From NCBI GenBank assembly GCA_963836205.1, contig CAWIIV010000024.1, positions 220,718 through 284,717 of the forward strand: a stretch of DNA of 64,000 nt, given 5' to 3'. The notes under the pieces are model-generated. The model ran no database searches and had not been told where the DNA came from. It worked only from the letters and a program-made list of their open reading frames with translations. Position 1 is the stretch's first letter. Each line of letters opens with the position of its first letter. The translations under genes and the position numbers were made by a program. The DNA is from an uncultured Acidimicrobiia bacterium. GTDB taxonomy: Bacteria; Actinomycetota; Acidimicrobiia; Acidimicrobiales; AC-14. Shown in pieces: positions 9,189 through 54,221 of the stretch.

Positions 9189-10628
9189 TTGAGCGAGGGC
9201 CGGGCTCCGACCGGGAGGGGCGTCAGACGCCCCCTCCCCTCGCCGCGCCTCGAGTCGTTGTTCGTGGCCACGTTCGTGCTCTTCGGGTTCCGCCTCGGCG
9301 TGCGCCCGATCGGCGACAACTCGATGCTCACCCACGTGCGCACCGGCATCGACATGGTGCGGGGGCTCGGCATCCCCCGGGTGGACCCCTACTCCTTCAC
9401 CGCCCCCGGCCACGACTGGGTGGTGCAGAGCTGGCTGCCGGAGTGGACCTACGGGTGGGCCTACCGGCTGGGCGGGTTCCGGCTGGTGGTGCTCGAACAG
9501 GCCGTGGTCATCGCCCTCCTGGCCTGGCTGGTGGTGCGCCTGGTGCGGGCGGGTTCGCCCCTGCGCACCGCCTTCGGCGCCCTGATCGTGGTCGGGATCG
9601 GCGCGCCGTTCTGGTCGCCCCGGCCCCTGCTGTTCGGCGCCGTCTGCATGGCCCTCGCCGTCACGATCGTGGAGAGCCGGCGCTCGCACTGGTGGCTGGT
9701 GCCGGTGGTGTGGCTCTGGGTCAGCAGCCACGGCTCGTTCCCGCTGGGCCTGGCCTGGCTGGCAGCCCGGGCGGTGGGGGAGGCGTTCGACTGGCGGGCG
9801 TGGCCCCGCGATGCAATCCGCTACGTGGGTGGGTTCGTCGTCGGACTGGTGGTGGCGGTGGTCAACCCGCTCGGGGCCAAGCTGCTGGCGTTCCCGTTCA
9901 CCCTGGGCGACAAGCGCCAGACGTTCGAGCGCATCGTCGAGTGGATGTCGCCCGACTTCCAGCACGCGCCAGCACGCGTCGCCCTCATCTTCCTCGTGCT
10001 GGCCCTGCTGCTGCTGGTGCGGGCCCGGCTGAGCTGGCGGGACGTCGTGCCGGTGGTCGCCTTCATGGCCGCCGGTCTCCTGGCCGTCAGGAACCTGCCC
10101 ATCGCGGCCGTGGTGCTGGCCCCGGTGCTGGGCCGGGTGCTCAAGCGCCCCGACTCGCTCCCGCCCCTGCCCCCCGTTCCCGCCAGCCGGGAGCGGCTCA
10201 ACCGGGTCTTCGCGGTGGCGCTCGTGGCCGCCTTCGTCGTCTTCGGACTCTCGATCCGGACCAACGACCCGCTGCGCCTGTCGGGCTACCCGATCGCGGC
10301 GACCGACTTCCTGGAGGAGTCGGGCCTGCTGGCGGCGCCCCACCGGCTGGCGCACCTCGACTTCGTGGGCAACTACTTCGAGCTCCGCTTCGGCCGCCGG
10401 GTCAAGGTCTTCATCGACGACCGCTACGACATGTACCCGGTGGAGGTGTCCCAGGACTACTCCAACCTGCTCCGGGGCCGTCCGCAGTGGCAGGCCATCC
10501 TCCAGGCCCGCCAGATCGACGTCGTTCTGTGGGACCGGGATCTGCCCCTGACCTCCCTCCTCAAGTCCACCGGGCAGTGGCTCGAGATCTTCGCCGACGG
10601 CGACTGGGTGGTCTTGCGGCGACTATGA
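9189..10628 (+). CDS. Polytopic membrane protein, GT-C-like (putative lipid-linked glycosyltransferase)
   Basis: First-loop D-x5-H-x3-G...IPRVDPYSFT..W...W motif, many TM segments, C-terminal soluble FIDDRYDMY domain; fold assignment is inference. Confidence 0.55.
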   Translation: MSEGRAPTGRGVRRPLPSPRLESLFVATFVLFGFRLGVRPIGDNSMLTHVRTGIDMVRGLGIPRVDPYSFTAPGHDWVVQSWLPEWTYGWAYRLGGFRLVVLEQAVVIALLAWLVVRLVRAGSPLRTAFGALIVVGIGAPFWSPRPLLFGAVCMALAVTIVESRRSHWWLVPVVWLWVSSHGSFPLGLAWLAARAVGEAFDWRAWPRDAIRYVGGFVVGLVVAVVNPLGAKLLAFPFTLGDKRQTFERIVEWMSPDFQHAPARVALIFLVLALLLLVRARLSWRDVVPVVAFMAAGLLAVRNLPIAAVVLAPVLGRVLKRPDSLPPLPPVPASRERLNRVFAVALVAAFVVFGLSIRTNDPLRLSGYPIAATDFLEESGLLAAPHRLAHLDFVGNYFELRFGRRVKVFIDDRYDMYPVEVSQDYSNLLRGRPQWQAILQARQIDVVLWDRDLPLTSLLKSTGQWLEIFADGDWVVLRRL

Positions 10629-10635
10629 GGTCGGT

Positions 10636-11811
10636 GTGAATCGCAGTGAGATCATCGGGGACCTGTTGCGGCGGGCCTCGCTCACCCCGCCCGACCTGTT
10701 GGCGGCCGACGTGGCCAACGCGCTGCACGACGCCGGCGGCAACCACCTCGTCCTCTACGTGGTGGACTACGAGCAGGAGACGCTTCAGCCGGTGGCGCTG
10801 GCCGGCGACCTGCTCTCCGAACGGCCCAAAGGCGTCCCCATCGAGGGAACCATGGCCGGGCGGGCGTTCCAGTCCCAGGAGGTCCTCTCCGCGGAAACGC
10901 CTGCCGGGTGGCGGGTGTGGGCGCCGGTGCGGGAGCGGGCCGAGCGCATCGGGGTCCTCGAGCTGGGCTTTCCCACGGTCGACGACGAGCTGCTGGCCCT
11001 GTGCGACGACCTCGGCCTGCTGGTCGGGCACCTCACCCACACCGCCGGCCGCTACACCGACCTCATCGAGCTGCGCCGCCGCCGTCGACCCATGAACCTG
11101 GCTGCCGAGATGCAGTGGGACCTGCTGCCCCCGCTGTCGTTCTCGTCGCCTGAGCTGGCCATCGCCGGCCTCCTCGAGCCGGCGTACTTCGTGGCCGGCG
11201 ACGCCTTCGACTACTCCCTCAACGGCGACATCCTCGCCTTCGCCATCATCGACGCCATGGGCCACGGGGTGCACTCCACCCTGGCCAGCACCCTCGCCCT
11301 GGGGGCCTTCCGCTACGGACGGCGGCGGGGGCTCGACCTGTCGGTGATCGCGGAGCACGTCGACGACGCGGTGGCCGAGCATTTTCACGGCGACTGCTTC
11401 GTCACCGGCCACCTGGCCCGCCTCGACGTGGCCACCGGCGACCTGCTCTGGGTCAACGCCGGCCACCCCCCGCCGCTCCTGCTCCGGGGGCCGAAGGTGG
11501 TGTCGGAGCTGGCTTGTGAGCCGTGCTTCCCGTTCGGGCTGGGGATCTCGATCACCGAGATCGGCCACTGCCGGCTGCAGCCCGGCGACCGGGTGCTGTT
11601 CTACTCCGACGGCGCCATCGAGGCCCGGCCCACCGCCGGCGAGCAGTTCGGGCTCGAGCGGCTGATCAGCGAGGTGGAGCAGTTCATCGGCGCGGGCGTC
11701 CTGGCTTCGGAGACGCTGCGCCGGCTGGCGGCACGGCTCCGCCAGCACCGGGGCGGGGAGCTGGAGGACGACGCCACCCTCGTCTTCCTGGACTGGCAGC
11801 CCGGCCGCTGA
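10636..11811 (+). CDS. PP2C/SpoIIE (RsbU-like) phosphatase
   Basis: VAGDAFD, IDAMGHG, NAGHPPP, YSDG, EDDAT. Confidence 0.92.
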   Translation: MNRSEIIGDLLRRASLTPPDLLAADVANALHDAGGNHLVLYVVDYEQETLQPVALAGDLLSERPKGVPIEGTMAGRAFQSQEVLSAETPAGWRVWAPVRERAERIGVLELGFPTVDDELLALCDDLGLLVGHLTHTAGRYTDLIELRRRRRPMNLAAEMQWDLLPPLSFSSPELAIAGLLEPAYFVAGDAFDYSLNGDILAFAIIDAMGHGVHSTLASTLALGAFRYGRRRGLDLSVIAEHVDDAVAEHFHGDCFVTGHLARLDVATGDLLWVNAGHPPPLLLRGPKVVSELACEPCFPFGLGISITEIGHCRLQPGDRVLFYSDGAIEARPTAGEQFGLERLISEVEQFIGAGVLASETLRRLAARLRQHRGGELEDDATLVFLDWQPGR

Positions 11812-11817
11812 CGGCGG

Positions 11818-12306
11818 TCAGCGGCCCTTCGGGCCGTCGGGGTCGGGCGGGCCGTCGGGGTCGGGCGGGGGGCCGAGGAAGCGGTCGAGGGGGCTGTCCC
11901 GGACGATGGCCAGCTCCTTGACCAGATGCACCACCGTCCCTTCCGCCGGGCGGGACTCGAACTTCACCCCGTCGACCAGGGCGGACAGGATGGCCAGGCC
12001 TCGCCCGTCCTCCGCCGATTCGGGGGCCATGCCCTGGGACAGCACCGACGAGTCGTCGAAGCCCCGGCCGGCGTCGACCACCGTGATCTCGCAGATCTGG
12101 TCGGTGACCACCAGGCGGACCTCGTACTCGTCGTCGACGCCCGAGTGCTGCACCACGTTGGTGCACGCCTCGGTGAGGGCCAGGGCCACGTCGTCGACGT
12201 CGGTCGGAGCGACGCCCAGCTCGTCGAGGGCGCACACGGCGATGTGGCGGATCACGGGCAGGGTCGACGAGTCCCGGGGGAGGCAGACCTCCATCTGGAT
12301 CCTCAC
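11818..12306 (-). CDS. RsbW-like anti-sigma factor / HATPase_c kinase
   Basis: LALTEACTNVVQHS, VVDAGRGF, EDGRGL; GTG start at 12306 inferred. Confidence 0.88.
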   Translation of the reverse strand: MRIQMEVCLPRDSSTLPVIRHIAVCALDELGVAPTDVDDVALALTEACTNVVQHSGVDDEYEVRLVVTDQICEITVVDAGRGFDDSSVLSQGMAPESAEDGRGLAILSALVDGVKFESRPAEGTVVHLVKELAIVRDSPLDRFLGPPPDPDGPPDPDGPKGR

Positions 12307-12464
12307 TGCGCACCACCGGGCCGCCGCGGCCGACGCCTGCGGGGAAGAGTCGGCGGGTGGGGAGCTCGCTCCATGGGTGGGTCCGGTTCTCCGGTCGGTT
12401 CGGGCTTCGTTCGCTCTCCTTACCCGTCCGCCACCCCTGGCGGAACCAACCTGACCCGGGAAAG

Positions 12465-12502
12465 GCAAGAGGAGCGGGCCCGAAGGGCTCCGCTCCTCTT
12501 GC
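12465..12502 (-). terminator. Intrinsic terminator hairpin after pilin 1
   Basis: GCAAGAGGAGCGG...CCGCTCCTCTTGC inverted repeat. Confidence 0.75.
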
Positions 12503-41255: not shown

Positions 41256-42255
41256 GGTCGCGGCCGCCGACATCGGTACGGCCTTCACGGGCCAGAAGGT
41301 CCTCGTCACCGGCGGCGTCGGCTTCATCGGCTCGAACCTGGCCCGGCGCCTGCTCGATCTCGGGGCCAAGGTGACCCTCGTCGACAGCCTGGTGCCCGAA
41401 TACGGCGGCAACCTGGCCAACCTGCAGGGCATCGAGGACCGGCTCCAGGTGAACATCTCCGACGTACGCGACGAGTACAGCATGGCCTACCTGGTGCAGG
41501 GCAAGGACTTCCTGTTCAACCTGGCCGGCCAGACCAGCCACCTCGACTCGATGCACGACCCGTTCACCGACCTCGAGATCAACTGCGCCTCCCAGCTGCA
41601 CATTCTCGAAGCCTGCCGCCGCCACAACCCGGACATGCCGGTCGTGTTCGCCAGCACCCGCCAGTTCTACGGACGCCCGGAATACCTCCCGGTCGACGAG
41701 CGCCACCCCCTCCACCCCGTCGACGTCAACGGGGTCAACAAGATGGCGGGCGAGTGGTACCACACGCTCTACCACGAGGCCTACGGCCTGCCGACCTGCT
41801 CCCTGCGCTTCACCAACACCTACGGACCCCGCATGAGGGTCAAGGACGCCCGCCAGACCTTCCTCGGCATCTGGCTCCGGCTGGCGATGCAGGGCGAGGC
41901 GTTCGAGGTCTGGGAGGGCGGCCAGCTGCGCGACTTCACCTACGTCGACGACGCGGTGGAGGCGCTGCTCCTCGCCGCGGTCAACCCCCAGGCCTACGGT
42001 CGGGCCTTCAACCTGGGGGGCAACGAGGCGCTCACCCTCACCGAGGTGGCCGACCGGCTGATCAAGGTGAGCGGTTCCGGGTCGTACACGGTGAAGCCCT
42101 ACCCCGAGGAACGCAAGCGCATCGACATCGGGCACTACTACGCCGACTTCTCCGCCATCAGCGAGACCCTGGGCTGGAAGCCGACGATCGACCTCGACGA
42201 AGGCCTGGCCCGCACCATCGCCTACCTGCGCGAGCACCTCCACGAGTACGTGTGA
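41248..42255 (+). CDS. NAD-dependent epimerase/dehydratase
   Basis: TGGVGFIGSNL, FNLAGQTSH, NTYGPR, RDFTYVDD. Confidence 0.9.
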   Translation: MVEVAAADIGTAFTGQKVLVTGGVGFIGSNLARRLLDLGAKVTLVDSLVPEYGGNLANLQGIEDRLQVNISDVRDEYSMAYLVQGKDFLFNLAGQTSHLDSMHDPFTDLEINCASQLHILEACRRHNPDMPVVFASTRQFYGRPEYLPVDERHPLHPVDVNGVNKMAGEWYHTLYHEAYGLPTCSLRFTNTYGPRMRVKDARQTFLGIWLRLAMQGEAFEVWEGGQLRDFTYVDDAVEALLLAAVNPQAYGRAFNLGGNEALTLTEVADRLIKVSGSGSYTVKPYPEERKRIDIGHYYADFSAISETLGWKPTIDLDEGLARTIAYLREHLHEYV

Positions 42256-43398
42256 CGGCCATCCGGCTGCCCGTCGTCGACCCGGCCGCCGCCCTCGCTC
42301 CCCATCTCGACGACGTCCGGGCCGCGGTGGAGCGGGTCATCGCCTCGGGCTGGTTCATCCTCGGCGAGGAGGTCGCCCGCTTCGAGGAGGAGTTCGCGGC
42401 GGTGTGCGGGGCCGCCTTCGGCATCGGGGTGGCCTCGGGGACCGACGCCGTCGCCCTCGCCCTCGAAGGGTGCGGGGTCGGAGCGGGAGACGGGGTGCTC
42501 ACCGTGTCCCACACCGCGGTGGCCACCGTCGCCGCCATCGAGTCCACCGGCGCCACGCCGATCCTCGTCGACATCGACGGCGGTTCCTTCACCATGTCGG
42601 CGGCAGCCCTGGAGACCAGGCTCGACGAGCTGGCGAAGCAGGGGAGCGGGGTGCGGCCCCGGGCGATCGTCGCCGTCCACCTCTACGGGAACCCGGCGCC
42701 GATGGGCGACATCGCGAGGATCGCTCACGTCCACGGGCTCGACGTCGTGGAGGACGTCGCCCAGGCCCACGGGGCCTCGCTCGACGGGCAGGCCGCCGGC
42801 TCGCTCGGCCGGGCCGCCGCCTTCAGCTTCTACCCGACCAAGAACCTCGGCGCGATCGGCGACGCCGGGATCGTGGTCACCTCGGACGAGGACGTCCGCG
42901 ACCGCGTCCGCCGGCTGCGCCAGTACGGCTGGGAGGAGCGGTACGTGAGCGCGGTCCCGGGCCGCAACAGCCGGCTCGACGAGGTGCAGGCGGCCGTGCT
43001 CCGAGTCCTCCTCCCTCACCTCGAGGGCGCCAACGCCCACCGGCGGGCGGTAGCAAACCGGTACGACCAGGGCCTGGCGGGCGGGGCCGGTGGCGACCCC
43101 CGCACCCGCCGCGCCGGGAGCGGCGCACGTGTACCACCAGTACGTCGTCCGGACACCCGAGCGCGACCGGCTGCGCGCGCGCCTGGCCGAGCGTGGAATC
43201 GGGACGGCGGTGCTCTACCCGGTGCCCGTCCACCGCCAGCCTGCGTACCGGCACCTCGACGTCGGCGACGGCCTCCCGGTGACCGACCGGGTGTGTGGGG
43301 AGATCCTCAGCCTGCCCATGGGTGCGCACGTGAGCATGGAGGCGGCCGACACCGTCGTGGAGGCGGTGCTCGCCTTCGACCCCTCGGTGGCGCCGTGA
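42252..43398 (+). CDS. DegT/DnrJ/EryC1/StrS aminotransferase (frameshift near 43080)
   Basis: SGTDA, VHLYG, EDVAQAHG, SFYPTKNLGAIGDAG, NSRLDEVQAA; HVYHQY...LSLPM in the next frame. Confidence 0.9.
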
Positions 43399-44375
43399 CC
43401 CGCGCCTTCTGCACCTACTTCGACGTGAACTACCTGTCGCGGGGCCTGGCCCTGTACGAGTCGTTGTGCGCCACCACCGCGGGGGACTTCACCCTCGACG
43501 TCCTCTGCCTCGACGACGAGGCCGAGCGCCGGCTGCGGAATCGGGCGCTCTCGGGAGTCCGGCTCACCCGCCTGGCCGACCTCGAAGGCGCCGATCCCGA
43601 GCTGCTCGCCACCAAGGGCACCCGGTCCAGGATCGAGTACATCTTCACCGCCGGGCCGGCCTTCATGCGCCATCTCTTCGACCGGGACCCCGCGCTCGAC
43701 CTGCTCACCTACCTGGACAGCGACCTCTACTTCTTCTCCAGCCCGGAGCCGCTGTTCGAGGAGGCGGACGACGCCGGCGCGGCGACGGTGATCGTCGGCC
43801 ACCGGTTCCCGGACCGGCTGCGACACCTGGAGGAGACCGGCCGCTACAACGTGGCCTGGGTCTCGTTCCGCCGTGACCCCGACGGGCTGGCCTGTCTCGA
43901 CTACTGGCGGTCGGCCTGCATCGACTGGTGCCACGACCGCGTCGAGGGCGATCGCTACGCCGACCAGAAGTACCTCGACCAGTTTCCCCGCCGGTTCGCC
44001 CGGGTCCACGAGCTCCAGCACCCGGGCGCCGACGTCGCCCCCTGGAACATCGACGACCCCCCCTTGCGGTGGGCGGACGGCTCCTTCCTGGTGAACGATC
44101 GGCCGCTCGTCTTCTTCCACTTCCAAGGGTTCAAGTTCCAACGCTTCAGGGCGATCGGCCCGTCGATGGTCGACCCGAACCTGGCCGCCTACGGCGCCCG
44201 GGCCGACAAGGCCGCCCGCCGCCTCTACCGCACCTACCTCGCCGCCCTCCGGCGGACCGCGGCGGGCGTCGCCGCCGCCAGCCCCCGACGGGCCGACGAC
44301 ATCCCCTGGTACCGGCGGTGCCTGCGCCAGGCCCGAGCGGTCGTCCGAGGTGACATCTTCCTGGCCCGGACCTAG
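43395..44375 (+). CDS. Putative glycosyltransferase (GT-A, DxD)
   Basis: FCTYFDVNYL-RGLALY, YLDSDLYFF, DQKYLD, APWN, FFHF. Confidence 0.7.
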   Translation: MTRAFCTYFDVNYLSRGLALYESLCATTAGDFTLDVLCLDDEAERRLRNRALSGVRLTRLADLEGADPELLATKGTRSRIEYIFTAGPAFMRHLFDRDPALDLLTYLDSDLYFFSSPEPLFEEADDAGAATVIVGHRFPDRLRHLEETGRYNVAWVSFRRDPDGLACLDYWRSACIDWCHDRVEGDRYADQKYLDQFPRRFARVHELQHPGADVAPWNIDDPPLRWADGSFLVNDRPLVFFHFQGFKFQRFRAIGPSMVDPNLAAYGARADKAARRLYRTYLAALRRTAAGVAAASPRRADDIPWYRRCLRQARAVVRGDIFLART

Positions 44376-44491: not shown

Positions 44492-45082
44492 TTACGTCGT
44501 CTTCGTCGGCGGTCGGCCACCGCCCTCGCGGTGGACGTGGGCGCGCTCGCCATCGCGGTCGAAGATCATGATGAGCTCGGCTGCGCCGTCGATGGCTGTG
44601 ATGGCGTGCGGCGTCATCGTCGCGAACTCGGCAGCCTCGCCGGTCTCGATGGTGATTTCGCGCTCGCCGAGCGACAAGCGTACCCGCCCCTCGATGACAA
44701 AGAACCAGTCGTGACCGGGATGGACGCGCTGCTCTGCGGCGCGACGGGTCGGTTCGAGTCGCATCTTGACGGCGATCGTGCTGCCCGTTGGTCGGCTCAG
44801 CATCCAGGTCGTGCGCTTCCCGGAGCTGTTCGGCACCGGCCGGATCACCACGTCGTCGTCACTGCGCACGTCTAGAAGGGCATCGAGGTCGACCTGGAGG
44901 GCTGCTGCGAGTGGCAGCAGTACGTCGAGGCTGATCGTCCGCTTGCCGGTCTCGACCCGGCTGATCGTGGACGGACTGAGGTTGGTACGGGCGGCGAGTT
45001 CGTCGAGCGACAGGCCCAGGGTGTTCCGGAGGCTCCGGAGCCGCGTGCGCACCACCCGCTCGATCTCGTTCAGTTCGGCCAT
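44492..45082 (-). CDS. XRE-family HTH + cupin regulator
   Basis: RLRSLR..LSLDELA..SPSTISRVETG; HPGHDW cupin motif. Confidence 0.9.
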   Translation of the reverse strand: MAELNEIERVVRTRLRSLRNTLGLSLDELAARTNLSPSTISRVETGKRTISLDVLLPLAAALQVDLDALLDVRSDDDVVIRPVPNSSGKRTTWMLSRPTGSTIAVKMRLEPTRRAAEQRVHPGHDWFFVIEGRVRLSLGEREITIETGEAAEFATMTPHAITAIDGAAELIMIFDRDGERAHVHREGGGRPPTKTT

Positions 45083-45157
45083 CACTTCGTCATCCGTTCC
45101 CTTGCGGATATCGCAAACTGTCTTGCATTTCTTCGCCCGGACCGTATCGTCAAATCC

Positions 45158-46747
45158 ATGAGCGAACACGCACCTCGCGTCGTCGAACGCCACTGCGACG
45201 TCGCCGTCATCGGCGGTTCAGCCGCCGGCCTCGCCGCCGCACTCCAACTCGCGCGCCAGCGTCGGTCGGTGATCGTCGTCGACTCCGGCGAGCCCCGCAA
45301 CGCACCCGCCGCCCACATGCACAGCTACCTCGGTCACGAGGGACTTCCGCCGTCGGAGTTCGCCGCGATCGGTCGCGACGAGGTCCGCAGCTACGGGGGT
45401 GAGGTCATCGCCGGTCGCGCCGTCGACGTGACCCGCACCGACGACGACCGCTTCCGTGTCGGGCTCACCGGTGGCCATTCGCTCGTGGCCCGACGAGTGC
45501 TTGCCGCCACCGGTCTCGTCGACGAGCTCCCCGACATCGACGGTGTTGCCGAGCACTGGGGCCGCGACGTCATCCACTGCCCGTTCTGTCACGGTTTCGA
45601 GGTCCGCGACCGGCGCATCGTCCAGATCGTCACCCACCCAATGGGGCTTCATCCCGCCGGGTTGTTCCGCCAACTGAGTAGCCGGTTTACGCTGGTTCTG
45701 CATGACGGCGTCGACGCCGACAGCGCCGAGGTCGAGGCCCTACGCGTCGCCGGGGTGAACGTCGTCGACGGGACCGTCCAGCGCGTCGTCACGGGTGACG
45801 ACGGCCGCGTTGCGGCCATCTCGTTGGCCGATGGCAACCGCATCGACGCCGACGCAGTCGTGATCGGCCCTCGGTTCAGGGTGCGCACCCAACCGTTCGC
45901 CTCACTCGGCCTGAAGCCGGCGGAGCACCCGAACGGGCTCGGGGACTACGTCGAGACGGACGCGACCGGTGAAACCGCCATACCGGGCCTGTACGCCGCC
46001 GGCAACGTGACCGATCCGACCCAACAGGTGTTGCAGGCCGCAGCCGCCGGTAGCCGGATTGGCGGGATGATCAGCTTCAGCCTCGCCCACGACGACATCG
46101 CAGCCGCAGCGCGACCGTCCGCCAACGAGATCGACTGGGACCACCGCTACCGCGGCGACCAGATGTGGAGCGGGAACCCGAACGGCAGCCTCGTCGCCGA
46201 GATCAGCGGCCTAGCCCCTGGTCGCGCCCTGGACGTGGGGGCGGGCGAGGGCGGCGACGTCATCTGGCTCGCCGATCAGGGCTGGCAGGTGACGGCGAGC
46301 GACATCTCAGAGCGAGCGCTGGACCGGGTCCACGCCGCGGCCGAGCGCCGCGGTCTGCGCGTCGAGAGCCATCACGCGGACGCCAATGCGCTCGATGCCT
46401 TCGAGTCTGGAGCTTTCGACCTCGTGTCGGCGCACTACGCGTCGATCCCGCGCACCCCGGACGGCCGCGGTGTCCGCAACCTGATGGACGCGGTCGCTAG
46501 CGGTGGCACGCTGCTCGTGGTCAGCCACGACCTTGAGCCGATGCGCGCGCCGATCGACACGCTGGCCCACAGCCGACCATTCGACCCGGACGCGTACGTG
46601 GGGGTCGACGAGATCGCGGCTGCGCTCGCGCAGTCATCGGACTGGACTATCGACATTCACCAGAAACGGCCCCGTCCCGCTGGCGCCGCCACCGCTGCGA
46701 TCCACGTCGATGACATCGTGCTGCGTGCCCGCCATCGCGCCAGCTGA
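45158..46747 (+). CDS. Bifunctional thioredoxin-reductase-like oxidoreductase / class I SAM methyltransferase
   Basis: IGGSAAGL, HCPFCHG, GLYAAGN; WSGNPN, ALDVGAGEGGD. Confidence 0.88.
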   Translation: MSEHAPRVVERHCDVAVIGGSAAGLAAALQLARQRRSVIVVDSGEPRNAPAAHMHSYLGHEGLPPSEFAAIGRDEVRSYGGEVIAGRAVDVTRTDDDRFRVGLTGGHSLVARRVLAATGLVDELPDIDGVAEHWGRDVIHCPFCHGFEVRDRRIVQIVTHPMGLHPAGLFRQLSSRFTLVLHDGVDADSAEVEALRVAGVNVVDGTVQRVVTGDDGRVAAISLADGNRIDADAVVIGPRFRVRTQPFASLGLKPAEHPNGLGDYVETDATGETAIPGLYAAGNVTDPTQQVLQAAAAGSRIGGMISFSLAHDDIAAAARPSANEIDWDHRYRGDQMWSGNPNGSLVAEISGLAPGRALDVGAGEGGDVIWLADQGWQVTASDISERALDRVHAAAERRGLRVESHHADANALDAFESGAFDLVSAHYASIPRTPDGRGVRNLMDAVASGGTLLVVSHDLEPMRAPIDTLAHSRPFDPDAYVGVDEIAAALAQSSDWTIDIHQKRPRPAGAATAAIHVDDIVLRARHRAS

Positions 46748-46848
46748 CGAGATACGCCGCACTGTCTCATAACGCCGGCCGGTGGACACCCGGCTGACTC
46801 GCCTGAAGGGCTCGCCAAACACTACTACGGCAGTAGTAGAGTATGAGC

Positions 46849-47118
46849 ATGCCACGTGGGAGACCCTCGCCGAAGCTGGCGATCACCGTTGACGCCGGTG
46901 TGCACGAGCGGGTCCTCGCCGCCGCCACCGAGGAGGGGGTCAGCGTCTCGGCCTGGATGACCGAGGCGGCCCGCCGAGCGCTGCTCCTCCGCGACGGCCT
47001 ACGGGCAGTCTCGGAGTGGGAGCAGGAACATGGCCCCCTCACCGCAGATGAGCTGGATGCTGCTCGCCGTCGTGTCGCGAGTGGTGTCGCCGCCGCTTCC
47101 CAGGCGCGACCGGCGTGA
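46849..47118 (+). CDS. Putative RHH-type antitoxin
   Basis: KLAITVD..SVSAW..WEQEHGPLT; GTGA overlap with the PIN gene. Confidence 0.7.
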   Translation: MPRGRPSPKLAITVDAGVHERVLAAATEEGVSVSAWMTEAARRALLLRDGLRAVSEWEQEHGPLTADELDAARRRVASGVAAASQARPA

Positions 47119-47492
47119 GCTTCGTCTACGACGCCGGCGTGTTCGTGGCCGCCGAGCGTAACGACCGCGAAGTCTGGGCCGATCATCGGGCTCGTTTGGA
47201 GCTTGGGCTCATCCCGCGGACGACCGCACCTGTCGTCGCCCAGGTCAGCCGCTCTCCGCGACAGGTGCAGCTACGGCGCATGCTGCGGGGCTGCGACATC
47301 GTCGGTTTCGCCCCGGATGACTCCCATGACGTCGGCGCTCTCGTGGGCAAGGCCTCGACTTCCGATGTCGTCGACGCCCACCTCGCCATCGTCGCCTCCA
47401 GGCGTCAGGCCACGGTCCTCACTTCCGACGTCGAGGACCTGCGCCATCTTGCCGACCAGTTGCCGACTCCCGTCCGGATTCAACGGGTCTGA
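47115..47492 (+). CDS. PIN-domain (VapC-like) toxin
   Basis: VYDAGVF, DVVDA, VLTSD. Confidence 0.75.
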   Translation: MSFVYDAGVFVAAERNDREVWADHRARLELGLIPRTTAPVVAQVSRSPRQVQLRRMLRGCDIVGFAPDDSHDVGALVGKASTSDVVDAHLAIVASRRQATVLTSDVEDLRHLADQLPTPVRIQRV

Positions 47493-47626
47493 TCTCGGAT
47501 CAGAGCCGACGGCACCTCCAAGGCGGTGTCCCATATGGACAGCGATCGACAGTGATGCCCGGTCGCCCTGATCGCCGGCTGGGCAGCGGGCTGAACAGAG
47601 CCTCCCATGAAACAGGAGGACCAGCC

Positions 47627-48516
47627 ATGACGACCATCCAGTACCGCGAGCCCGACCACCCGATTGACGATGCCGAGTTGGCTGCCGCGGCGTTCCTGGC
47701 TCGGTACAGCGGACGCACGCTCGAGGCGTACCGCCATGACCTGCGCGGCTTCTTCCAGTGGGCGTCCAACAACGGCGTGGTCGTGCTCGGGGCCACTCGC
47801 CCGCATATCGAGCTGTTCCGTGCCCCGATGGAAGATCGCGGTCTGGCCGCCTCGACGGTCGACCGGCGGCTCTCGACGGTGTGCGGATTCTACCGGTTCG
47901 CTCATATCGACGGCCGGATCGGATCGAACCCTGCCCAGTACGTCCGCCGGCCGCAGTCCACCCCTCGGACGCTCGCGGTTTGGATCGCTCCGAGTTCGGC
48001 GTGTTCCTCTTCACCGCCGAGCAGTACGACCGCGAGCACGCCGCGCTCGCGGTGCTGCTCGGACTCAACGGATTGCGAGTCAGCGAGGCGTGTGCCACCA
48101 ACATCGAAGACCTCGGGATCGAACGAGGTCACCGGACGCTGCGCATCCTTGGCAAGGGGAACAAGCCCGCGACAATCCCGCTGGTTCCCCGCACCGCCCG
48201 CACGATCGATCTCGCTGTCGGGGAACGCCACGAGGGTCCGATCCTGCGCCGACGCGACGGACAGCGGCTCGACCGGCGCACGGCGCACCGGTGGGTGCGC
48301 TCGATCGGCAAGCGCGCCGGGCTCGGGCACGTCCACCCGCACATGCTGCGCGCCGCGTTCATCATGGCCGCCCTCGACGCCGGCGTACCCCTGCGGGACC
48401 TGCAGACCGCCGCCCGGCACTCCGACCCGACAACGACGACGATCTACGACCGGCGTCGCCAGAACTTCGACCCCCACGCCGCCTACGTCGTCGTCGCCTT
48501 CGTCGCGGGAGGCTGA
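47627..48516 (+). CDS. Tyrosine recombinase/integrase (frameshift near 47956)
   Basis: N-terminal RTLEAY..STVDRRLS..GFY; catalytic GLRVSE, GKGNK, HPHMLR, ARHSD, TIYD. Confidence 0.9.
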
Positions 48517-48545
48517 CGACGCCTGGGGGCGTACGCTTGTGGCCG

Positions 48546-48721
48546 TGAGTGACGCCGTTCGACCCTCGGGCGAGGCCCCGCACGGGACATCGTTGCTGCC
48601 AGCCGATCTGACCGACGATCAGCTCGACGCGGCCCAGGTGCTCGACTCGATCGACTCCCTGCTGATCGAGGACCTCTCCGAGGCCGAAGACGACGCGTTC
48701 GCCGCAGCGCTCGAGTCTTGA
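48546..48721 (+). CDS. Small acidic putative antitoxin
   Basis: LLIEDLSEAEDDAFAAALES; TTGA overlap with the PIN gene. Confidence 0.5.
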
Positions 48722-49120
48722 GGATCCTCGTCGACACCGGCGTCTTCAGCGCGTCCATCAGCCGACGCCGCCGCGCCCGCTTCGAGACCCAGGTCGGTCT
48801 CATGGCCGGCCACCAGACCTTCCTCGCCGCCGGCACCGTTGCCGAGGTCCGCTATGGCGCGCTCGTCGCCGGTTGGGGAGATCAACGCCGCCAGCGGTTG
48901 GAGCAGTCGATCGCCGCGACCACGGTCGTGCCCGTCAGTGACGCCCTGCTGACGGCCGTCGCCGAGCTTCGCCACGCCTGCCGACAGGCCGGACATGCGC
49001 TGCATGAACCGCTCCATGCCAACGACCTGGATCGCGGCGTCTGCGATCCATGTTGGCGCTCCGCTCCTCACCGCCGACGCCGTCTTCAAGGACGCACCGG
49101 GGCTCAACCTCCACCGATAG
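48718..49120 (+). CDS. PIN-domain toxin (frameshift near 49027)
   Basis: ILVDTGVFS, TVAE, HANDL then WIAASA..LLTAD in the shifted frame. Confidence 0.75.
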
Positions 49121-49705
49121 AGATCGCCGGGCAGAAGGTCTGGGGCGACATTCGGGGGCGCGCCACCAGCCCGCGACGAATCGGCACTTCGAGGGCGTGT
49201 CCGCACAGGCAAGGCGGGGAACGAAAGACCGAGCGGTATGGGACACACTGCGGTGATATCAGTCACCCTCGCCCATGACGCCGACGTCGAGATCCGGCAG
49301 CACCAAAGCTCCCCAGGCCAGCAACCCACGCTTGAGACATAGGCCGCAAGGGTCCAGCACCCGCGGGCGCGCAACGTCCACCCGGGGTGGATACGCCTGA
49401 TGCGTCCCGGCGAAAGCGGACCCGCCAGGTCGTCAGAGAACCGTCGAGCCAGCGGCGGCTCGTGACTCCCGCCAGCTCTGCACAACTCGACAACCGTCGC
49501 GCGACTCGCCATCCCGGCCGATTGAACCCAGCATGCCACCGGGCGACTATCCCGCTGGCGTCGCCACCACGCTCGCAGCCCGGCCGCCGATCACCGCCAG
49601 CCAACGACCGCCGCCGCCCCACCCTCCTAGACTCGGCAACATCTCGCCGGATGGGTCGGGGACACAAAGAACCGTACCCGACGACTGCAGCAACAGGAGC
49701 GAACC

Positions 49706-50287
49706 GTGAGTCCACTGATCCTCTTTGCGATTGGAGTCGGAACAACACTACTCGTGAGCGGGCCTGGTATCGAGTTGTTGCAATCGTATCGTCAGAGGCT
49801 TACCTGGCGATCCTTCGTACGCGCATTGCAGTCCCCAGAGCTGCTACACCAGCTGACTGGGAACCGCCCAGACGTCCTCATCGGTCTAAATGGCGGGATA
49901 GTGGCCGCTGGCATTCTTGCACTGAACTACGGGTTCTCAGAAGTTCACTTCCTTAACCTGTTGCCCTATGTGGGTCCACCCGCCCTCCGACCATCGTCGC
50001 CGCCCGCCCTCGACCTTCCACACTCAATCAAAGCGAGGTCTGTCCTAATAATCGATGACCAGTACATTTCTGGCCGCTCGATGCAAATGGCGGTCGAGGC
50101 CCTGACAGCCTACGGAGTTCCGAGAGATTCGATCAGATGCCTATCGGTTCTCAAGTACAAGCTTCCGGCAAGCTCCCCAGCCATTGAGGTTCCTTCAGCA
50201 GCCCGCGTAAGTGGGCGTCTGAAATGGGCCCCATGGGTTATTTCTGAACAGCTCACGAGCTTCTATAAGTGGCGCGCGTCGAATTAG
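49706..50287 (+). CDS. Type I phosphoribosyltransferase-domain protein with N-terminal hydrophobic segment
   Basis: PDVLIGLNGG; VLIIDDQYISGRSM PRPP-loop-like motif. Confidence 0.7.
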   Translation: MSPLILFAIGVGTTLLVSGPGIELLQSYRQRLTWRSFVRALQSPELLHQLTGNRPDVLIGLNGGIVAAGILALNYGFSEVHFLNLLPYVGPPALRPSSPPALDLPHSIKARSVLIIDDQYISGRSMQMAVEALTAYGVPRDSIRCLSVLKYKLPASSPAIEVPSAARVSGRLKWAPWVISEQLTSFYKWRASN

Positions 50288-51441
50288 CACATTCGCGGAT
50301 CTTGCAGCGAACAGCGATGACGAGCTTTACGCTCACCGCCAGCCAAACGAGGGCAACAGAGTGTCTCTATTCGCGTGGCTGTGCTCACCATCTTCAAGAC
50401 TTCGTTGCGCTCGTTAGTCCGTCGTACTCGAGATTTCACGTAGTCATCGACAGCCAAGTTGGGGTCAGCCAGAATCGAGTGGTAGCGATCCTCCGCTCGC
50501 TGTCGGAGTCTGGTTTGTGTACACTCAAATTCATCCGGGGTGGCGAAGCTGCCAAGTCGACCAGACAACTCTGGAATCTCGTCGATACCTTCGACGCCAA
50601 GAGAGTGGCACGCAGGAGTGAGCCGATAGTGGCGTTGGGAGGCGGATCCGTCCTAGACGTGGTTAGTCTCGCGGCAAGCATCTATCGCCGGGGCGTGCCG
50701 CACATTCGAGTACCGACGACCTTGCTTGCGATGGTCGATGCTGGATTGGCCGCCAAGACAGCAATCAACTTTCACGGTCGCAAGAACCTAATTGGCACCT
50801 TTTCGCCGCCTGAGGGGATCATGCTTGACCCTGCGCTACTCGGGTCACTACCGAGACACGAACTGGGACATGGGCTTGCTGAAATTCTAAAGCTAGGCAT
50901 CGCAGCCGACCGGCACCTATTCGAGGCAATTGAACATGGCACTCGCGGTATTCTCGCCGGCGGTTTCTCGTCGTCGGAGCACGACGACGTACTCCTAAGG
51001 GCTGTCGAATCAATGACAGCAGCAATCTGGCCGGACCTTTGGGAAGACGATCTCAATCGTGCAACGGACTTTGGGCACTCGATAAGCAAAGAACTTGAGG
51101 CGCGTCTAGATCCGCGGCCCTCACACGGGGACGCTGTGGCGTTGGACATGGCGATTTGCATTGCGACCTCGCGGGCGCTTGGTTTGCTCGACGGGGACTC
51201 ATGCCAACGTATGCTGCGAGCTATTGCTTCGGCCGGACTTCCAATCTATAGAGCGATTGATGACAACATCATTGCTGCTGGAATAGCAGATACGCGGGTC
51301 CACCGGGACGGGGGTAAAACCGTTCCGTTACCTGATGCAATTGGGCATGTAGTGCACGTCGACGTTACAGCTGCCGATTTGTGCGGTAACCAGCAGTATC
51401 TTCGGACAGTGGCGCGGGCCGCAGACGCAGATCGATTGTGA
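50269..51441 (+). CDS. Sugar-phosphate cyclase, sedoheptulose-7-phosphate cyclase (EEVS/DDGS)-like, DHQ synthase superfamily
   Basis: RRSEPIVALGGG, YRRGVP, PTTL, KTAINF-KNLIG, AEILK, PDLWE, DFGHS, HGDAVALDM; start may be ATG 50317. Confidence 0.8.
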   Translation: MARVELAHSRILQRTAMTSFTLTASQTRATECLYSRGCAHHLQDFVALVSPSYSRFHVVIDSQVGVSQNRVVAILRSLSESGLCTLKFIRGGEAAKSTRQLWNLVDTFDAKRVARRSEPIVALGGGSVLDVVSLAASIYRRGVPHIRVPTTLLAMVDAGLAAKTAINFHGRKNLIGTFSPPEGIMLDPALLGSLPRHELGHGLAEILKLGIAADRHLFEAIEHGTRGILAGGFSSSEHDDVLLRAVESMTAAIWPDLWEDDLNRATDFGHSISKELEARLDPRPSHGDAVALDMAICIATSRALGLLDGDSCQRMLRAIASAGLPIYRAIDDNIIAAGIADTRVHRDGGKTVPLPDAIGHVVHVDVTAADLCGNQQYLRTVARAADADRL

Positions 51442-52403
51442 TCTCGATCATCCAGCTCGGTCATTGGTGCGTGGACCTGCGACTCCGAATACCCGATCGT
51501 GTTGTCGAGGACGCTATCATGGTTCCTTCACATCACTCGTTCCAGCTGGGTGGAGCGGCGGGCTTTGCTGTGGCCGCACATGCTTTAGGGTGCGACGTGG
51601 TAGCCTCTCTCTTAATTAGCACCGACCGACTCGCCGACCTTGCTCGGCAGCTTATAGGGGAGGCTGGCATCGAGCTAATCGAGGGCAGCCCGCAGCCCGA
51701 CGTGGAGACACCTATTAGCATCGTCATCGAGTCCGGCAAGGGGTGGCGAACCGCTCTCGTCATAGCCGGAAGCAACGAGAACGTGTCGTTTGATAGCCTA
51801 AATGCCGCAACGTCGGGACGCGCTGGCCTCGCAGATATCGTTCATCACGGCTACCCATGCTTGACTCCCCGCCTGAGCTGGATCGATGTCGATAGGGTCG
51901 CAAGTATTGCTCCTAGGGCGCTCCACTTAATGGATCTAAATGGAGCTGAGGAGTATCGTCCCACTCTATCCGAGATGAATCTTTTCGGGGCTGAGACGGT
52001 GATCAAAGGCAACGCAAGTGAATGGCGCGCTTGTTCAAGAGTTGGCACTGTTCAGACCGGGTGCGTAGCCGCTCTACGAGCTGGTGCGCGCTGTGCTGTG
52101 GTGACAGAGGGGAGGCTTGGCGCTTCGGCTGTGCTGAGAACTGCCAATGAATTGTCCCGGGCCCGTGGAGCGGACAGAGACATCGAGGCCGATGCGACTC
52201 ACGAATACTTCAAGTCAGAAACGGCCAACATCGAAGGCGACGCCACCGGGGCGGGCGATGCCTTTTTCGCAGCCTTTGCTGTTCGCCTTGTGGCCTCCAA
52301 CAGTCTCAGCGGATCGTCGGTACAGCGAGCGCTCGATGAAGGAAACGCCTTCGCTGGCAGCTGGATAGCTCGCGGTGAAGCTCAGCCGAGTGCGGGAGCG
52401 TGA
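51438..52403 (+). CDS. PfkB/ribokinase-family kinase
   Basis: LGGAAG-AVA, NASE, VVTEG-G, DATGAGDAF. Confidence 0.82.
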   Translation: MISIIQLGHWCVDLRLRIPDRVVEDAIMVPSHHSFQLGGAAGFAVAAHALGCDVVASLLISTDRLADLARQLIGEAGIELIEGSPQPDVETPISIVIESGKGWRTALVIAGSNENVSFDSLNAATSGRAGLADIVHHGYPCLTPRLSWIDVDRVASIAPRALHLMDLNGAEEYRPTLSEMNLFGAETVIKGNASEWRACSRVGTVQTGCVAALRAGARCAVVTEGRLGASAVLRTANELSRARGADRDIEADATHEYFKSETANIEGDATGAGDAFFAAFAVRLVASNSLSGSSVQRALDEGNAFAGSWIARGEAQPSAGA

Positions 52404-52706
52404 GCCTGCTTCTCGCACCGGAACGGAACCGGATGGTTGCCTTGGCGGAGCCACGCGACAAGACGGCGAACGCGTAACTCTGTGATCCCGGGCTGACACG
52501 CCAGACACGCTGGGTGACGGCAACGTGCCGATCCTTCCCGTGCGCCGCGCCAGCAGGAGACGACTGGCAGCCGATCGGTATTCGCGTAGCGGCCCGGAGC
52601 GTCCGAGGTGCCACATAATCCCGAGCCAGGCGGGTCCGACAGGGTCGCCCTGATCGCCGGCTCGGAAGTCACGCCACCAACGAGGCATACGTTGCCTGCC
52701 ACGGCA

Positions 52707-54221
52707 TTAGTTCGCCGACTCCTCCCGCCGCTCGAAGAGGAAGAGCTTCCGGGGCTCGGGAAACGAGGCGAACTGGTCCCGGAGGACGAAGGAACGGCCG
52801 AAGGCGGCCAGGTAGCCCTCCTCCGTGTACCAGTCGTGCTGGGGGCCGAGGAGGTCGGCCACGTACTGGTCGTCGCGGGGCATGAACTCGACCAGCAGCC
52901 AGCGCTGGCTGAGGGCGGCGAAGCTCTGCGCGATCTGGTCGAAGGTCATCACCTGGGAGAAGACCAGGTGGTGGGTGACGGCCAGGGCGAGGACGAGATC
53001 GGCCCGGAGACGCTCGAGGCCGGGGATGAGCCACCGGTTGCACGGGCCGGCGCCGGGCGTCGGGCTCCGCACGTCGAAGACCAGGGGCAGGAGCCGAAGC
53101 GACTCCTGCTTGGCCATGCCGTGCAGGTTGTTGATGGTGGCGTTGTCGATGTCGGCCGCGATCACGTAGGCGCCGTGGCGCTCGGCGAGCCGGGAGAACC
53201 ATCCCTCGTTGCTCCCGATGTCGAGGCAGATGCGGGGCGAGACCTTGGCCAGGACGTCGTTGACGGCGTGGTTCTTCGCCGTCCAGCCGGGCCCCGGTTC
53301 GAGGTCGGGGACCTCCCCCGCGTGGAACGCGGTGTAGTAGTTGGCCCAGAAGCTCCTCGACGTCACCTCCACCCGGTCGACATCGGCCCGGCCCTTCGCC
53401 ACCGCCGCCCTCCGCTCCGCCGGCCTGGGCAGGCTCGCGGGCACCCCATAGGTCGGGCGGACCTCGACCTCCACGTTCGGGACCCGGCTCCGCAGGCGGT
53501 CGCGCGCCCGCTCAGGAAGCCACCGGCGGGCGAGGGTGGTGGCCGCCGGGAGGACGGACGCCCGCGCCTGCTTGGCGACCCGCTTGGAGACGAAGGTGAG
53601 GGAGCCGGTCAGCGCCTCCCGCTCCGCGCGGCTGACCCCCCAGTAGTCGGACAAGAGGGCCCGGACGAGGCGGTCGTGGCCCTCGGCCATGACCCGGAGG
53701 GGCTCGAGGAAGAACCGCTCGAACTGCTGCCGGGCCGGAAACAGCGGGTCGGCGCCCGAGATCATCCACAGCCGGGGCTCGTCGATCCGGACGATGGCTC
53801 CGATGTCGACGAAGACGGGCCGGGGACCGATGAAGAGCACGTTCCACGGGTTGGCGTCGGCGATCGTCAGGGAGTCGCCCGCCAGCTCATCCTCCAGGTC
53901 GAGGATGAGGTGGGCGGCATCCTTCAGCATGGAGCTGCTCCACTCCGACGGGTAGCTCACCACCGACACCCGCTCGTGCCTGAGCACCAGGTCACCCTCG
54001 GTGAGGCTCAGGGCCACGACCTCGGTGGGGATGAGCAGGCCCTTCGTGAGCGCACGGCCGACTGACGGCGAGGACAGGACCGCCCGTCGTCCCTCGCTCA
54101 CCTGGGGCCGGATGTGCCGGTAGAGGTCGCCACGCCACTCGAAGAGCCGTCCGAAGTCGTCGGCGCCCGAGGACGACAGCCACACCACCTCGTCGATCGG
54201 GATCCCCGTCGGGTCCGTCAC
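52707..54221 (-). CDS. NoeA-like class I SAM methyltransferase
   Basis: SYPSEWS-MLKDAA, DANPWNV, FVDIG, LDIGSNEG, ALAVTHHL. Confidence 0.72.
   Translation of the reverse strand: MTDPTGIPIDEVVWLSSSGADDFGRLFEWRGDLYRHIRPQVSEGRRAVLSSPSVGRALTKGLLIPTEVVALSLTEGDLVLRHERVSVVSYPSEWSSSMLKDAAHLILDLEDELAGDSLTIADANPWNVLFIGPRPVFVDIGAIVRIDEPRLWMISGADPLFPARQQFERFFLEPLRVMAEGHDRLVRALLSDYWGVSRAEREALTGSLTFVSKRVAKQARASVLPAATTLARRWLPERARDRLRSRVPNVEVEVRPTYGVPASLPRPAERRAAVAKGRADVDRVEVTSRSFWANYYTAFHAGEVPDLEPGPGWTAKNHAVNDVLAKVSPRICLDIGSNEGWFSRLAERHGAYVIAADIDNATINNLHGMAKQESLRLLPLVFDVRSPTPGAGPCNRWLIPGLERLRADLVLALAVTHHLVFSQVMTFDQIAQSFAALSQRWLLVEFMPRDDQYVADLLGPQHDWYTEEGYLAAFGRSFVLRDQFASFPEPRKLFLFERREESAN

Follow-up and report, generated by a model that had tools for sequence, protein, structure and literature searches.

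The first two steps in the biosynthesis of acarbose and validamycin are the work of a synthase of 2-epi-5-epi-valiolone (EEVS) and of a cyclitol kinase. More generally, sedoheptulose-7-phosphate cyclases stand at the head of the routes by which acarbose, validamycin, gadusol and other bioactive cyclitols of this kind are made, and reviewers point to many cryptic clusters (PMC12904256). In another corner of metabolism, phosphoribosyl pyrophosphate (PRPP) can pass its ribose 5-phosphate on to a hydroxyl or phosphate group of aminocyclitols, BtrL of the butirosin pathway being the example treated in the relevant part of PMC13707489. PRPP-dependent ribosylation extends to glycans and lipids, with the gPRT-PRP ribofuranosyltransferases and the UbiA-type phosphoribosyltransferases such as Rv3806c (PMC11127046, PMC11294581, in the portions that deal with these enzymes). 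We describe here a locus where these two kinds of chemistry may meet: three genes that span positions 49706 to 52403 of the window, a word that designates the whole stretch of 64,000 nucleotides that was analysed (G000:C24:220718-284717). The window forms the end of a 284.7-kb contig from the genome of an uncultured Acidimicrobiia bacterium (4.05 Mb, 70% GC, 25 contigs).

The genes code, in that order, for a probably membrane-anchored protein resembling phosphoribosyltransferases (PRTs), for an EEVS-like cyclase and for a divergent kinase of the PfkB family. Judged by its sequence, the trio is a putatively horizontally acquired, compact operon, which a small tyrosine-recombinase element carries as its cargo, and the locus is best described as a variant of the known start of C7-cyclitol pathways. 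Whether the genes make up, as a whole, a foreign operon for a phosphorylated C7-cyclitol that includes a PRT-like step is a matter on which we would put the chances at about even; the parts of this reading do not stand equally firm, and they are weighed separately below.

A compact operon of foreign composition

The first-pass annotation of this DNA had picked out three coupled, co-oriented open reading frames (ORFs) of low guanine-plus-cytosine (GC) content, and all three are present where it had placed them, on the plus strand. Gene 1 (49706..50287, 193 aa) combines an N-terminal hydrophobic helix with a type I PRT-like domain; gene 2 (50269..51441), the EEVS-like sedoheptulose-7-phosphate cyclase, comes to 390 aa when translation begins at GTG 50269 and to 374 aa when it begins at ATG 50317; gene 3 (51438..52403, 321 aa) is the divergent PfkB-family kinase. 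The packing is tight. Gene 1, with its stop at 50287, runs past GTG 50269, where the cyclase may begin, while the database record of the window's own cyclase (P0002) begins at ATG 50317, with 374 aa, and so leaves a gap of 29 bases after gene 1. The cyclase stop and the kinase start share four bases (GTGA), and an AGGAG placed 8 bases 5′ of the GTG start of gene 1 provides a good ribosome-binding site.

Measured in steps of 200 bases, the GC content across 49700-52400 stays between 0.53 and 0.61, with sharp edges, against some 0.70 for the window as a whole and 0.67-0.70 in the immediate flanks (400 bases on the 5′ side, 200 bases on the 3′ side). Gene by gene the trio has a GC content of 0.56-0.59, and at third codon positions (GC3) a value of 0.58-0.60 compared with 0.84-0.95 in three host genes. 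This uniform composition, which is not that of the host, argues that the three genes arrived together, and it suggests a single foreign origin for the trio. Short contigs of two sequencing runs belonging to one study (X1 and X2, depth 2-5) are identical to parts of the cassette; these runs may be the source sample, and the contigs are therefore not independent support. Around the trio, no Rfam match was found across 46500-53000 at E <= 1, promoter-like and terminator-like sites were no more frequent than expected from shuffled sequence, and the flanking minus-strand ORFs (49263-49748, 48619-49539, 52306-52614 and 52382-52702) gave no Pfam match.

An EEVS-like cyclase

The product of gene 2 falls within the superfamily of DHQS-fold sugar phosphate cyclases, with 115.1 bits for Pfam DHQ_synthase (cut-off 24.2) and 63.9 bits for DHQS_C (cut-off 27.6). 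With the NCBIfam model of the housekeeping enzyme, aroB, it scores 191.8 bits, under the cut-off of 305. Its best match in the PDB is ValA, the EEVS of validamycin biosynthesis (4p53, 204.6 bits), well ahead of a DDGS (5tpr, 126.6 bits), of the DHQS entries (116.4 bits at most) and of DOIS (78.7 bits). In a maximum-likelihood tree of 30 rows it belongs to the non-AroB clade (support 100/100), where it is sister (94/92) to a group that contains the annotated sedoheptulose 7-phosphate cyclases carried by plasmids of Streptomyces clavuligerus, Rhizobium rhizogenes and Agrobacterium vitis; as there is no labelled DDGS or EVS sequence among the rows, this tree does not separate EEVS from EVS. Identity to the nearest sequences is just 33-40%, and the best figure reached with any sequence is 36-40%. 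A separate AroB-like gene, 32% identical to the cyclase, is present on contig 14 of the same genome (G000:C14).

The motifs agree with this placement. Counting residues from the GTG at 50269, we find RRSEP at 115-119, YRRG at 139-142, PDLWED at 255-260 and DFGHS at 267-271, and the nucleotide-binding motifs are kept as well (GGGSVLD at 124-130, PTTLLAMVDAG at 149-159). E205, H270 and H286 align with the metal-ligand positions of ValA and AroB. In an alignment of 21 sequences, among them 10 others not of the AroB type, the cyclase displays D-F-G-H-S-I-S-K and V-H-R-D-G in place of the N-x-G-H-x-x-x-H and DKK of the AroB-type sequences aligned. The sites that distinguish EEVS from DDGS are Asp281 and His360 of ValA, in whose place DDGS has Ala and Thr. 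In 4p53 the counterpart of D267 in the window's cyclase is the D of DFGHS and that of H345 is the H of KHRDG; 5tpr has A-Y-G-H and T-R-D-G there. That two positions separate the two classes is stated, without the residues, in PMC4426668. The first-pass annotation had relied on the same signatures (RRSEP, YRRG, PxLWE, DFGHS), together with E/H/H ligands, to set the enzyme apart from AroB; every one of them is there, and the ValA match, the aroB score and the tree lead to the same view. From its sequence, then, the protein is to be seen as EEVS-like, and not as the housekeeping AroB.

A kinase of another fold beside the cyclase

Pfam assigns the whole length of gene 3 to the PfkB family, with 62.4 bits across residues 6-317 for a cut-off of 25.8, and the catalytic motifs of that family are intact: GG at 38-39, NASE at 192-195 (NxxE) and GAGD at 272-275. 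Beyond this it stands quite apart. It has no match among PDB sequences at E <= 0.01 and, although PfkB genes are common in the phylum, none at E <= 1e-8 when 400 further genomes from it were searched, and no relatives in 72,556 plasmids, in 50,697 phage records or in viral contigs. The NCBIfam matches are partial and far below threshold, namely ribokinase (33.3 bits, cut-off 299.65), ribose-1-phosphate kinase (29.5, cut-off 330), IolC (27.1, cut-off 300) and also RfaE domain I, and they do not fix the substrate. A single-sequence AlphaFold2 (AF2) model of the kinase was unusable, with a mean predicted confidence (pLDDT) of 32.7.

It is the place of the gene that speaks for a role. A ROK-family gene directly adjoins the cyclase in three of the four annotated plasmid loci (S. 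clavuligerus, R. rhizogenes and A. vitis; not in Streptomyces sp. NBC_00467). In three of the four phage loci (L073, L075 and L077; not in L076), a gene of 324-344 aa without Pfam match stands directly 5′ of the cyclase, an SDR gene coming after it; the consensus of this upstream protein carries a motif of the protein-kinase/APH type, and we read it as kinase-like. L073 also has a nucleotidyltransferase gene, with genes for UDP-galactopyranose mutase and an aldehyde dehydrogenase downstream, while L075 and L077 also carry glycosyltransferases. Related cyclases thus usually appear to have a kinase as their direct neighbour, the fold of which differs from one group of loci to another. Because gene 3 occupies the same position as these neighbouring kinases, and because its start overlaps the stop of the cyclase, it may be read as a cyclitol kinase, and by analogy we infer that PfkB is here a non-homologous replacement of the ROK-type enzymes. 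In the loci and literature that were searched, the PfkB fold had not previously been paired with EEVS-like cyclases: a full-text search of the literature found no paper joining PfkB with 2-epi-5-epi-valiolone, none joining a sedoheptulose 7-phosphate cyclase with a phosphoribosyltransferase and none joining aristeromycin, cyclitol and phosphoribosyltransferase.

A rare PRT-like protein with a putative membrane anchor

The sequence of gene 1 matches the Pyrococcus enzyme 1vdm with an E-value of 1.9e-5, and an AF2 model built on a 17-sequence alignment of its family reaches a pLDDT of 88.2. When compared by VIA-align, this model superposes on the Sulfolobus HGXPRT 4z1o with a Z-score of 16.0 and a root-mean-square deviation (rmsd) of 2.3 over 137 residues, on 1vdm with Z 15.3 and on the Helicobacter pylori XGHPRT 7kl6 with Z 14.3; the first 41 rows of the comparison are all PRT-fold proteins, and a glycan ribofuranosyltransferase, 7shg, comes as a distant structural match at rank 45 (Z 6.0). 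Foldseek agrees, with 1vdm, the Sulfolobus HGXPRT and PyrR at the top. We are confident, from the model, that residues ~27-185 would adopt the type I PRT fold in a form close to that of the 6-oxopurine PRTs. Residues 113-126, VLIIDDQYISGRSM, make a PRPP-type motif in which an acidic pair is followed by an SG loop; the PRPP-binding motif consists of a hydrophobic run, two acidic residues and a T/S-G-x-T/S loop. D117 and G123 are invariant in all 17 aligned members of the family.

Ahead of this domain, residues 4-17 form a hydrophobic helix (mean Kyte-Doolittle value of 2.16 over 17 residues), which is kept across the family and followed by basic residues, an arrangement consistent with a protein that is anchored in the membrane and has its domain in the cytoplasm. 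This is a very rare family: among 1,835,955,588 representatives, 43 proteins are found at E <= 1e-3, 11 at <= 1e-10 and two at <= 1e-30, and the ten members that were looked up are singleton clusters without exception.

A possible path to a phosphorylated cyclitol

Taken together, the three proteins could act in succession. As homology supports, the cyclase would close sedoheptulose 7-phosphate, drawn from the pentose phosphate pathway, with the help of NAD+ and of a divalent metal, and yield, with loss of the phosphate, a keto-cyclitol of seven carbons (2-epi-5-epi-valiolone or one of its stereoisomers). The PfkB kinase, acting in the stead of the ROK-type kinases, would then phosphorylate the cyclitol anew, as the gene order of other loci leads one to propose. 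Finally, the anchored PRT-like protein might bind PRPP, or a nucleoside 5′-phosphate, at the inner face of the membrane and transfer a phosphoribosyl group, either to a purine base, as its nearest structural relatives do, or to the cyclitol itself, so far as fold and motif allow one to say. The conversion of the sugar phosphate into a cyclitol phosphate by cyclase and kinase is the best-supported part of this scheme, and the PRT step is the weakest.

The acceptor deserves a word. While the fold points to purine bases, the missing loop arginine (see below), the membrane anchor and the habit of standing first in a small operon, with a different enzyme beside it, leave room for another one. It is tempting to go further and to see in the family a new class of PRPP-dependent transferases that work on small-molecule acceptors made by the neighbouring gene, with a phosphoribosyl-carbasugar as the product here, ribose 5-phosphate being placed on the C7-cyclitol or its phosphate on the inner side of the membrane; this we would back with little conviction. 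Were it true, such a compound would represent a previously undescribed class of metabolites, to be used as a signal, as an inhibitor or as a building block of glycans, and in the second type of locus considered in the next section a B12-dependent radical SAM enzyme would receive from the same family a substrate resembling a nucleotide.

Distribution of the trio and of its genes

Neither the trio nor any two of its genes together turned up again in the genomes, metagenomes, plasmids, phages and viral contigs that were searched. (The tallies given here for relatives and for the phylum include the unpublished genomes G008, G009, G015, G017, G023, G127, G187, G213 and G382.) At the DNA level the cassette had no match in 40 relatives, save for a stretch of 130 bases, 70% identical, in the core of the cyclase in one of them (G009). 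Four EEVS-like genes were present in genomes of the phylum, scoring 206, 189, 169 and 154 bits, and none of them had a PfkB or PRT gene within ~10 kb by tblastn; the nearest Pfam PfkB matches lie 12 kb away, with a score below the cut-off, and 86 kb away.

The PRT-like family was followed in several ways. A word-indexed search with gene 1 gave one relative among 333 candidates, P0001, 58% identical and lying on a contig of 2319 bases; a cyclase fragment on a contig such as that of P0001 (2319 bases) appeared in none of 78 matches. A pattern of the family, built from a 7-row alignment, found nothing in genome contigs (two scans), plasmids, phages or viral contigs, and as for metagenome contigs, a first scan gave nothing and a second one distant locus, L003. 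In 401 genomes of the phylum a profile of the family gave 213.5 bits to the window's own gene and 43.5 to the next best; the lower-scoring matches look like ordinary PRTs, and nearly all of them begin at profile position >= 19. In L003, over 9911-12472 of a 16.7-kb metagenome contig, the stop of the PRT-like gene adjoins the start of a gene for a B12-binding radical SAM protein of 652 aa. On its gene arrangement, L003 is to be regarded as a second type of small operon of this apparently membrane-anchored family. It is worth emphasizing that, with sampling as sparse as this, the failure of the trio to recur cannot show that its three genes are unrelated.

A small recombinase element within a glycan locus

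A tyrosine recombinase, flanking direct repeats and the occurrence of the same unit in other genomes are the marks by which an integrative element may be recognized, and all three are found here. Two imperfect, att-like direct repeats, both read on the plus strand and identified by a repeat search, lie at ~47519..47590 (core 47561-47586) and at ~52597..52706 (core 52643-52668), the latter adjoining the stop codon of the host gene 52707-54221; the 26-base core 47561-47586 recurs at 52643-52668 with 92% identity. The right repeat matches sequence of two relatives, G001 at 78% and G007 at 89%, where the same CGCCGGCT[G/C]GG core is found at both ends of integrase-plus-cargo units. The unit 47541-49197, which consists of the tyrosine recombinase gene, a small ORF and a PIN ORF, occurs at 95-97% identity in G001, G006 and G007, which belong to the same genus, and in G016, which belongs to another, with differing surroundings each time. 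Between this unit and the right-end sequence lie 2.5 kb of other cargo in G001, with genes for an FG-GAP repeat protein and an uncharacterised product of 416 aa, and 0.85 kb in G007. The sequences give the impression of a family of integrative elements, small and modular, whose cargo varies. The recombinase unit is also common in soil runs, and is present in the loci L005-L008 and L012-L015.

In the window, the recombinase gene (47627..48516, plus strand) is frameshifted, its SAM-like N-terminal domain and its catalytic domain being in different frames: a G is missing after 47955 which is present in the copies of four relatives and in contigs of three soil runs, and the copy of G016 is one ORF of ~300 aa with all the motifs that were checked. 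Likewise the PIN-domain ORF of the unit (48718..49278, plus strand; PIN E 1.2e-4, 23.1 bits for a cut-off of 23.6) is missing a CT after 49026 that is present in four other copies and in contigs of three runs. The indels at 47955 and 49026 could reflect either decay or errors in a long-read assembly. Other copies of the recombinase unit each have scattered single-base indels of their own. Between this unit and the leader of the cassette lies a short shared segment, 49194..49299, with a 95% match to G016:C1:70502-70605; the contigs of three soil runs diverge into unrelated sequence at 49187-49194 and at 49299, and a leader of 400 bases separates the segment from the cassette.

No empty insertion site was found in the relatives. 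The host gene on the right, 52707-54221, which codes for 504 aa with a weak match to methyltransferases, lacks a counterpart at the DNA level in the 12 relatives searched, while the neighbouring Wzt gene has one; with no counterpart for an empty-site comparison, the extent of the element is given by its repeats alone. The glycan locus itself is, by its gene content, apparently variable within the genus. The element splits it: this Wzm/Wzt-type locus, between uvrA/uvrB and nadA/uvrC, comprises genes for a priming sugar transferase, GT2 enzymes, epimerases and dehydratases, a DegT aminotransferase, a Wzt with C-terminal domain and Wzm.

Just to the left of the element, a separate module holds a toxin-antitoxin pair (46843..47492, plus strand), with an antitoxin-like ORF at 46843-47118 (91 aa) and a PIN-like ORF at 47115-47492, the PIN match of which is weak (E 0.0098, below the cut-off). 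The stretch 46770-47561 recurs alone and in other surroundings, at 92% in G019 and at 87% in G008. Both matches end at 47561-47578, at the att-like sequence, as though this module could move by itself or were the place where insertion usually occurs. Further to the left, at 44492-46747, an XRE-HTH/cupin regulator is divergent from a gene of 529 aa that fuses a pyridine-nucleotide-disulphide oxidoreductase with a SAM methyltransferase; with the glycan genes on one side and the toxin-antitoxin module on the other, this pair may belong to one and the same insertion-prone region. Beyond it, an ORF of 873 aa (41754-44375) has a DegT-type aminotransferase domain at residues 189-445 only, and the long parts on either side of that domain are probably from other genes, or from other reading frames of a DNA so rich in GC.

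Weighing the proposed pathway

Several observations weigh against the idea that the trio makes a phosphorylated, and perhaps phosphoribosylated, cyclitol. The trio is a singleton, known from sequence alone in one genome, and as no second trio or gene pair was found, the co-function of its members rests on their adjacency there. The cyclase has a lysine at position 274 (GHSISK, four residues after the metal-binding histidine) where the 10 other non-AroB-type sequences of the alignment all have proline; it also has H201 and I272 where these sequences have, respectively, mostly asparagine, and phenylalanine or tryptophan (codons 50869-50871 for residue 201, 51082-51084 for 272 and 51088-51090 for 274, on the plus strand). 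At the site of Lys274, AroB has a histidine. The terminal branch of the cyclase in the tree measures 1.55 for a median of 0.58, and this long branch, taken with the changed residues, leaves room for a different substrate or product, or for an enzyme in decay. No substrate can be assigned to the kinase, which could act upstream, in a ribokinase-like supply, or on nucleosides.

Gene 1 has its own share of difficulties. It remains just under both Pfam cut-offs, with 26.7 for UPRTase (27) and 22.0 for Pribosyltran (26.3), a shortfall that concerns formal membership of these families and not the fold. Its L-N-G-G aligns with the A-R-G-G of 1vdm, so that asparagine replaces the arginine of the RGG loop, the residue that binds pyrophosphate; that arginine is in none of the 17 aligned members of the family, which have Asn, Ser or Gly instead. 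The relative in L003, 38% identical and the one closer relative whose surroundings could be read, is coupled to a B12-binding radical SAM enzyme and not to a cyclase. To this must be added the indels of the recombinase and PIN genes, from which it seems that the element may be degenerating.

Other explanations have therefore to be considered. The location within a glycan locus invites the thought that host enzymes of the Wzm/Wzt locus attach to a cell-surface polymer what the cassette provides, be it a carbasugar phosphate or a phosphoribosyl group, with the anchored PRT-like protein acting at the membrane. The neighbours of the related phage cyclases, among which are nucleotidyltransferase, SDR and glycosyltransferase genes, go in this direction, and PRPP-dependent O-ribosylation of glycans and aminocyclitols is established in other protein families, as the parts of PMC11127046, PMC11294581 and PMC13707489 that concern it report. 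Yet the cassette has no nucleotidyltransferase, reductase or glycosyltransferase of its own, and 7shg is just a distant match to gene 1; the position follows from the insertion site of the element, which has other surroundings in relatives, and the adjacent host gene 52707-54221, having no counterpart in 12 relatives, tells us that the locus is variable anyway. Such a decoration of surface glycans seems to us unlikely. We accord a similarly low probability to the view that there is no single pathway here, or none that still functions, the trio being the hitch-hiking leftover of some larger foreign cluster, or else a salvage pair, PRT and PfkB, lodged beside an unrelated cyclase. PRTs and PfkB kinases are ordinary salvage enzymes, neither the trio nor its gene pairs were met elsewhere in the collections searched, all three proteins are unusually divergent, and the recombinase and PIN genes carry indels; against this stand three ORFs of full length with intact catalytic motifs, tight packing, a 4-base overlap, a shared composition and a good ribosome-binding site before gene 1.

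Two further proposals, which came from the first-pass annotation, lose ground when set beside the data. That the cargo is compact and foreign, and that two toxin-antitoxin modules flank the mobile element bearing it, could make one think of defence against phages or of chemical defence, by way of a glycosidase-inhibiting cyclitol or of a nucleotide-like compound protecting the host or the element, all the more so as the products of related cyclases include bioactive inhibitors (PMC12904256, in part). However, none of the three proteins matches a PADLOC-DB 2.0 family at E <= 0.01, 14 neighbouring ORFs that were scanned give generic HTH and methyltransferase matches only, neither phage records nor viral contigs yielded relatives of the PRT or of the kinase, and the trio did not recur in the collections searched; the proposal retains but a slight chance. 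That the phosphorylated cyclitol would mimic PRPP, and that the PRT would couple it to a nucleobase into a carbocyclic nucleotide analogue, is less probable still. The nearest folds of gene 1 are indeed purine PRTs, and angustmycin offers a precedent, where the APRT-like AgmE uses a non-ribose sugar diphosphate provided by the pyrophosphokinase AgmC (PMC12648386, in the part that treats this step). But a diphosphate leaving group is needed, and the cassette encodes neither a pyrophosphokinase to make it nor a reductase or aminotransferase to tailor the keto-cyclitol, which is why we rate the idea so low; moreover, the phosphate of a six-membered C7 ring would presumably be a poor mimic of ribose 5-phosphate, and the PRT-like family is without the RGG-loop arginine of 1vdm. 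Both proposals draw on the setting of the genes and on nothing beyond it. The annotation had also looked to a trio conserved in other genomes, and had itself regarded a failure to find one as speaking against its reading; no collection searched contained it. What endures of that first interpretation is an EEVS-like cyclase in a foreign mobile cassette with an integrase and toxin-antitoxin setting (borne out by the recombinase unit, albeit in a copy with a 1-base deletion, the direct repeats, the toxin-antitoxin genes and GC3), and the absence from the cassette of the usual partners of cyclitol pathways, which comparison with plasmid and phage cyclase loci confirms; its defence and cyclitol-nucleobase readings were speculation that found no support.

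Significance

The interest of the locus lies in its combination of parts: a divergent cyclase with an altered active-site residue, a PfkB kinase, an anchored PRT-like protein from an almost unsampled family, and a small mobile element that carries them. Should the three genes act together, they would make a cyclitol derivative that is new and give the PRT-like family a function. Should they not, there would remain an illustration of how small recombinase elements move biosynthetic fragments into the surface-glycan loci of soil actinobacteria. At just 2.7 kb, the operon would be cheap to test by expression.

Comparison with known systems

Among the cyclase loci compared, the cassette is the smallest and the oddest version. 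With regard to PRPP-dependent O-ribosylation, the resemblance is one of chemistry: BtrL, the gPRT-PRP enzymes and the UbiA-type PRTases, the latter being polytopic membrane proteins, belong to protein families other than that of gene 1, and the cassette, in comparison with these systems, encodes no phosphatase partner. The 6-oxopurine PRTs (4z1o, 1vdm, 7kl6) are nearer, as they share with gene 1 both the fold (rmsd 2.3-3.1 over 137-142 residues) and the acidic pair with its SG loop; the product of gene 1 differs from them by the added N-terminal helix, by the asparagine that stands for the loop arginine and by a family-specific K-x-x-P-W near the C terminus.

The EEVS cassettes of phages and plankton are also compact and mobile, with an adjacent kinase-like gene and a cyclase 34-37% identical to that of the window, but their kinase-like protein is not a PfkB, an SDR is present and tblastn finds no PRT. 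The most instructive comparison is that with the ValA/AcbC-type EEVS and the cyclitol kinases AcbM and ValC, which we take to be of the ROK/glucokinase family. Missing from the cassette, when it is set against the acarbose and validamycin clusters, are an epimerase, a dehydrogenase, an aminotransferase, a nucleotidyltransferase and a glycosyltransferase. The beginning is nevertheless held in common: a DHQS-fold cyclase with the EEVS-type Asp and His and with RRSEP, YRRG and PxLWE, and, in both, a kinase beside the cyclase, which is here a PfkB and not a ROK protein.

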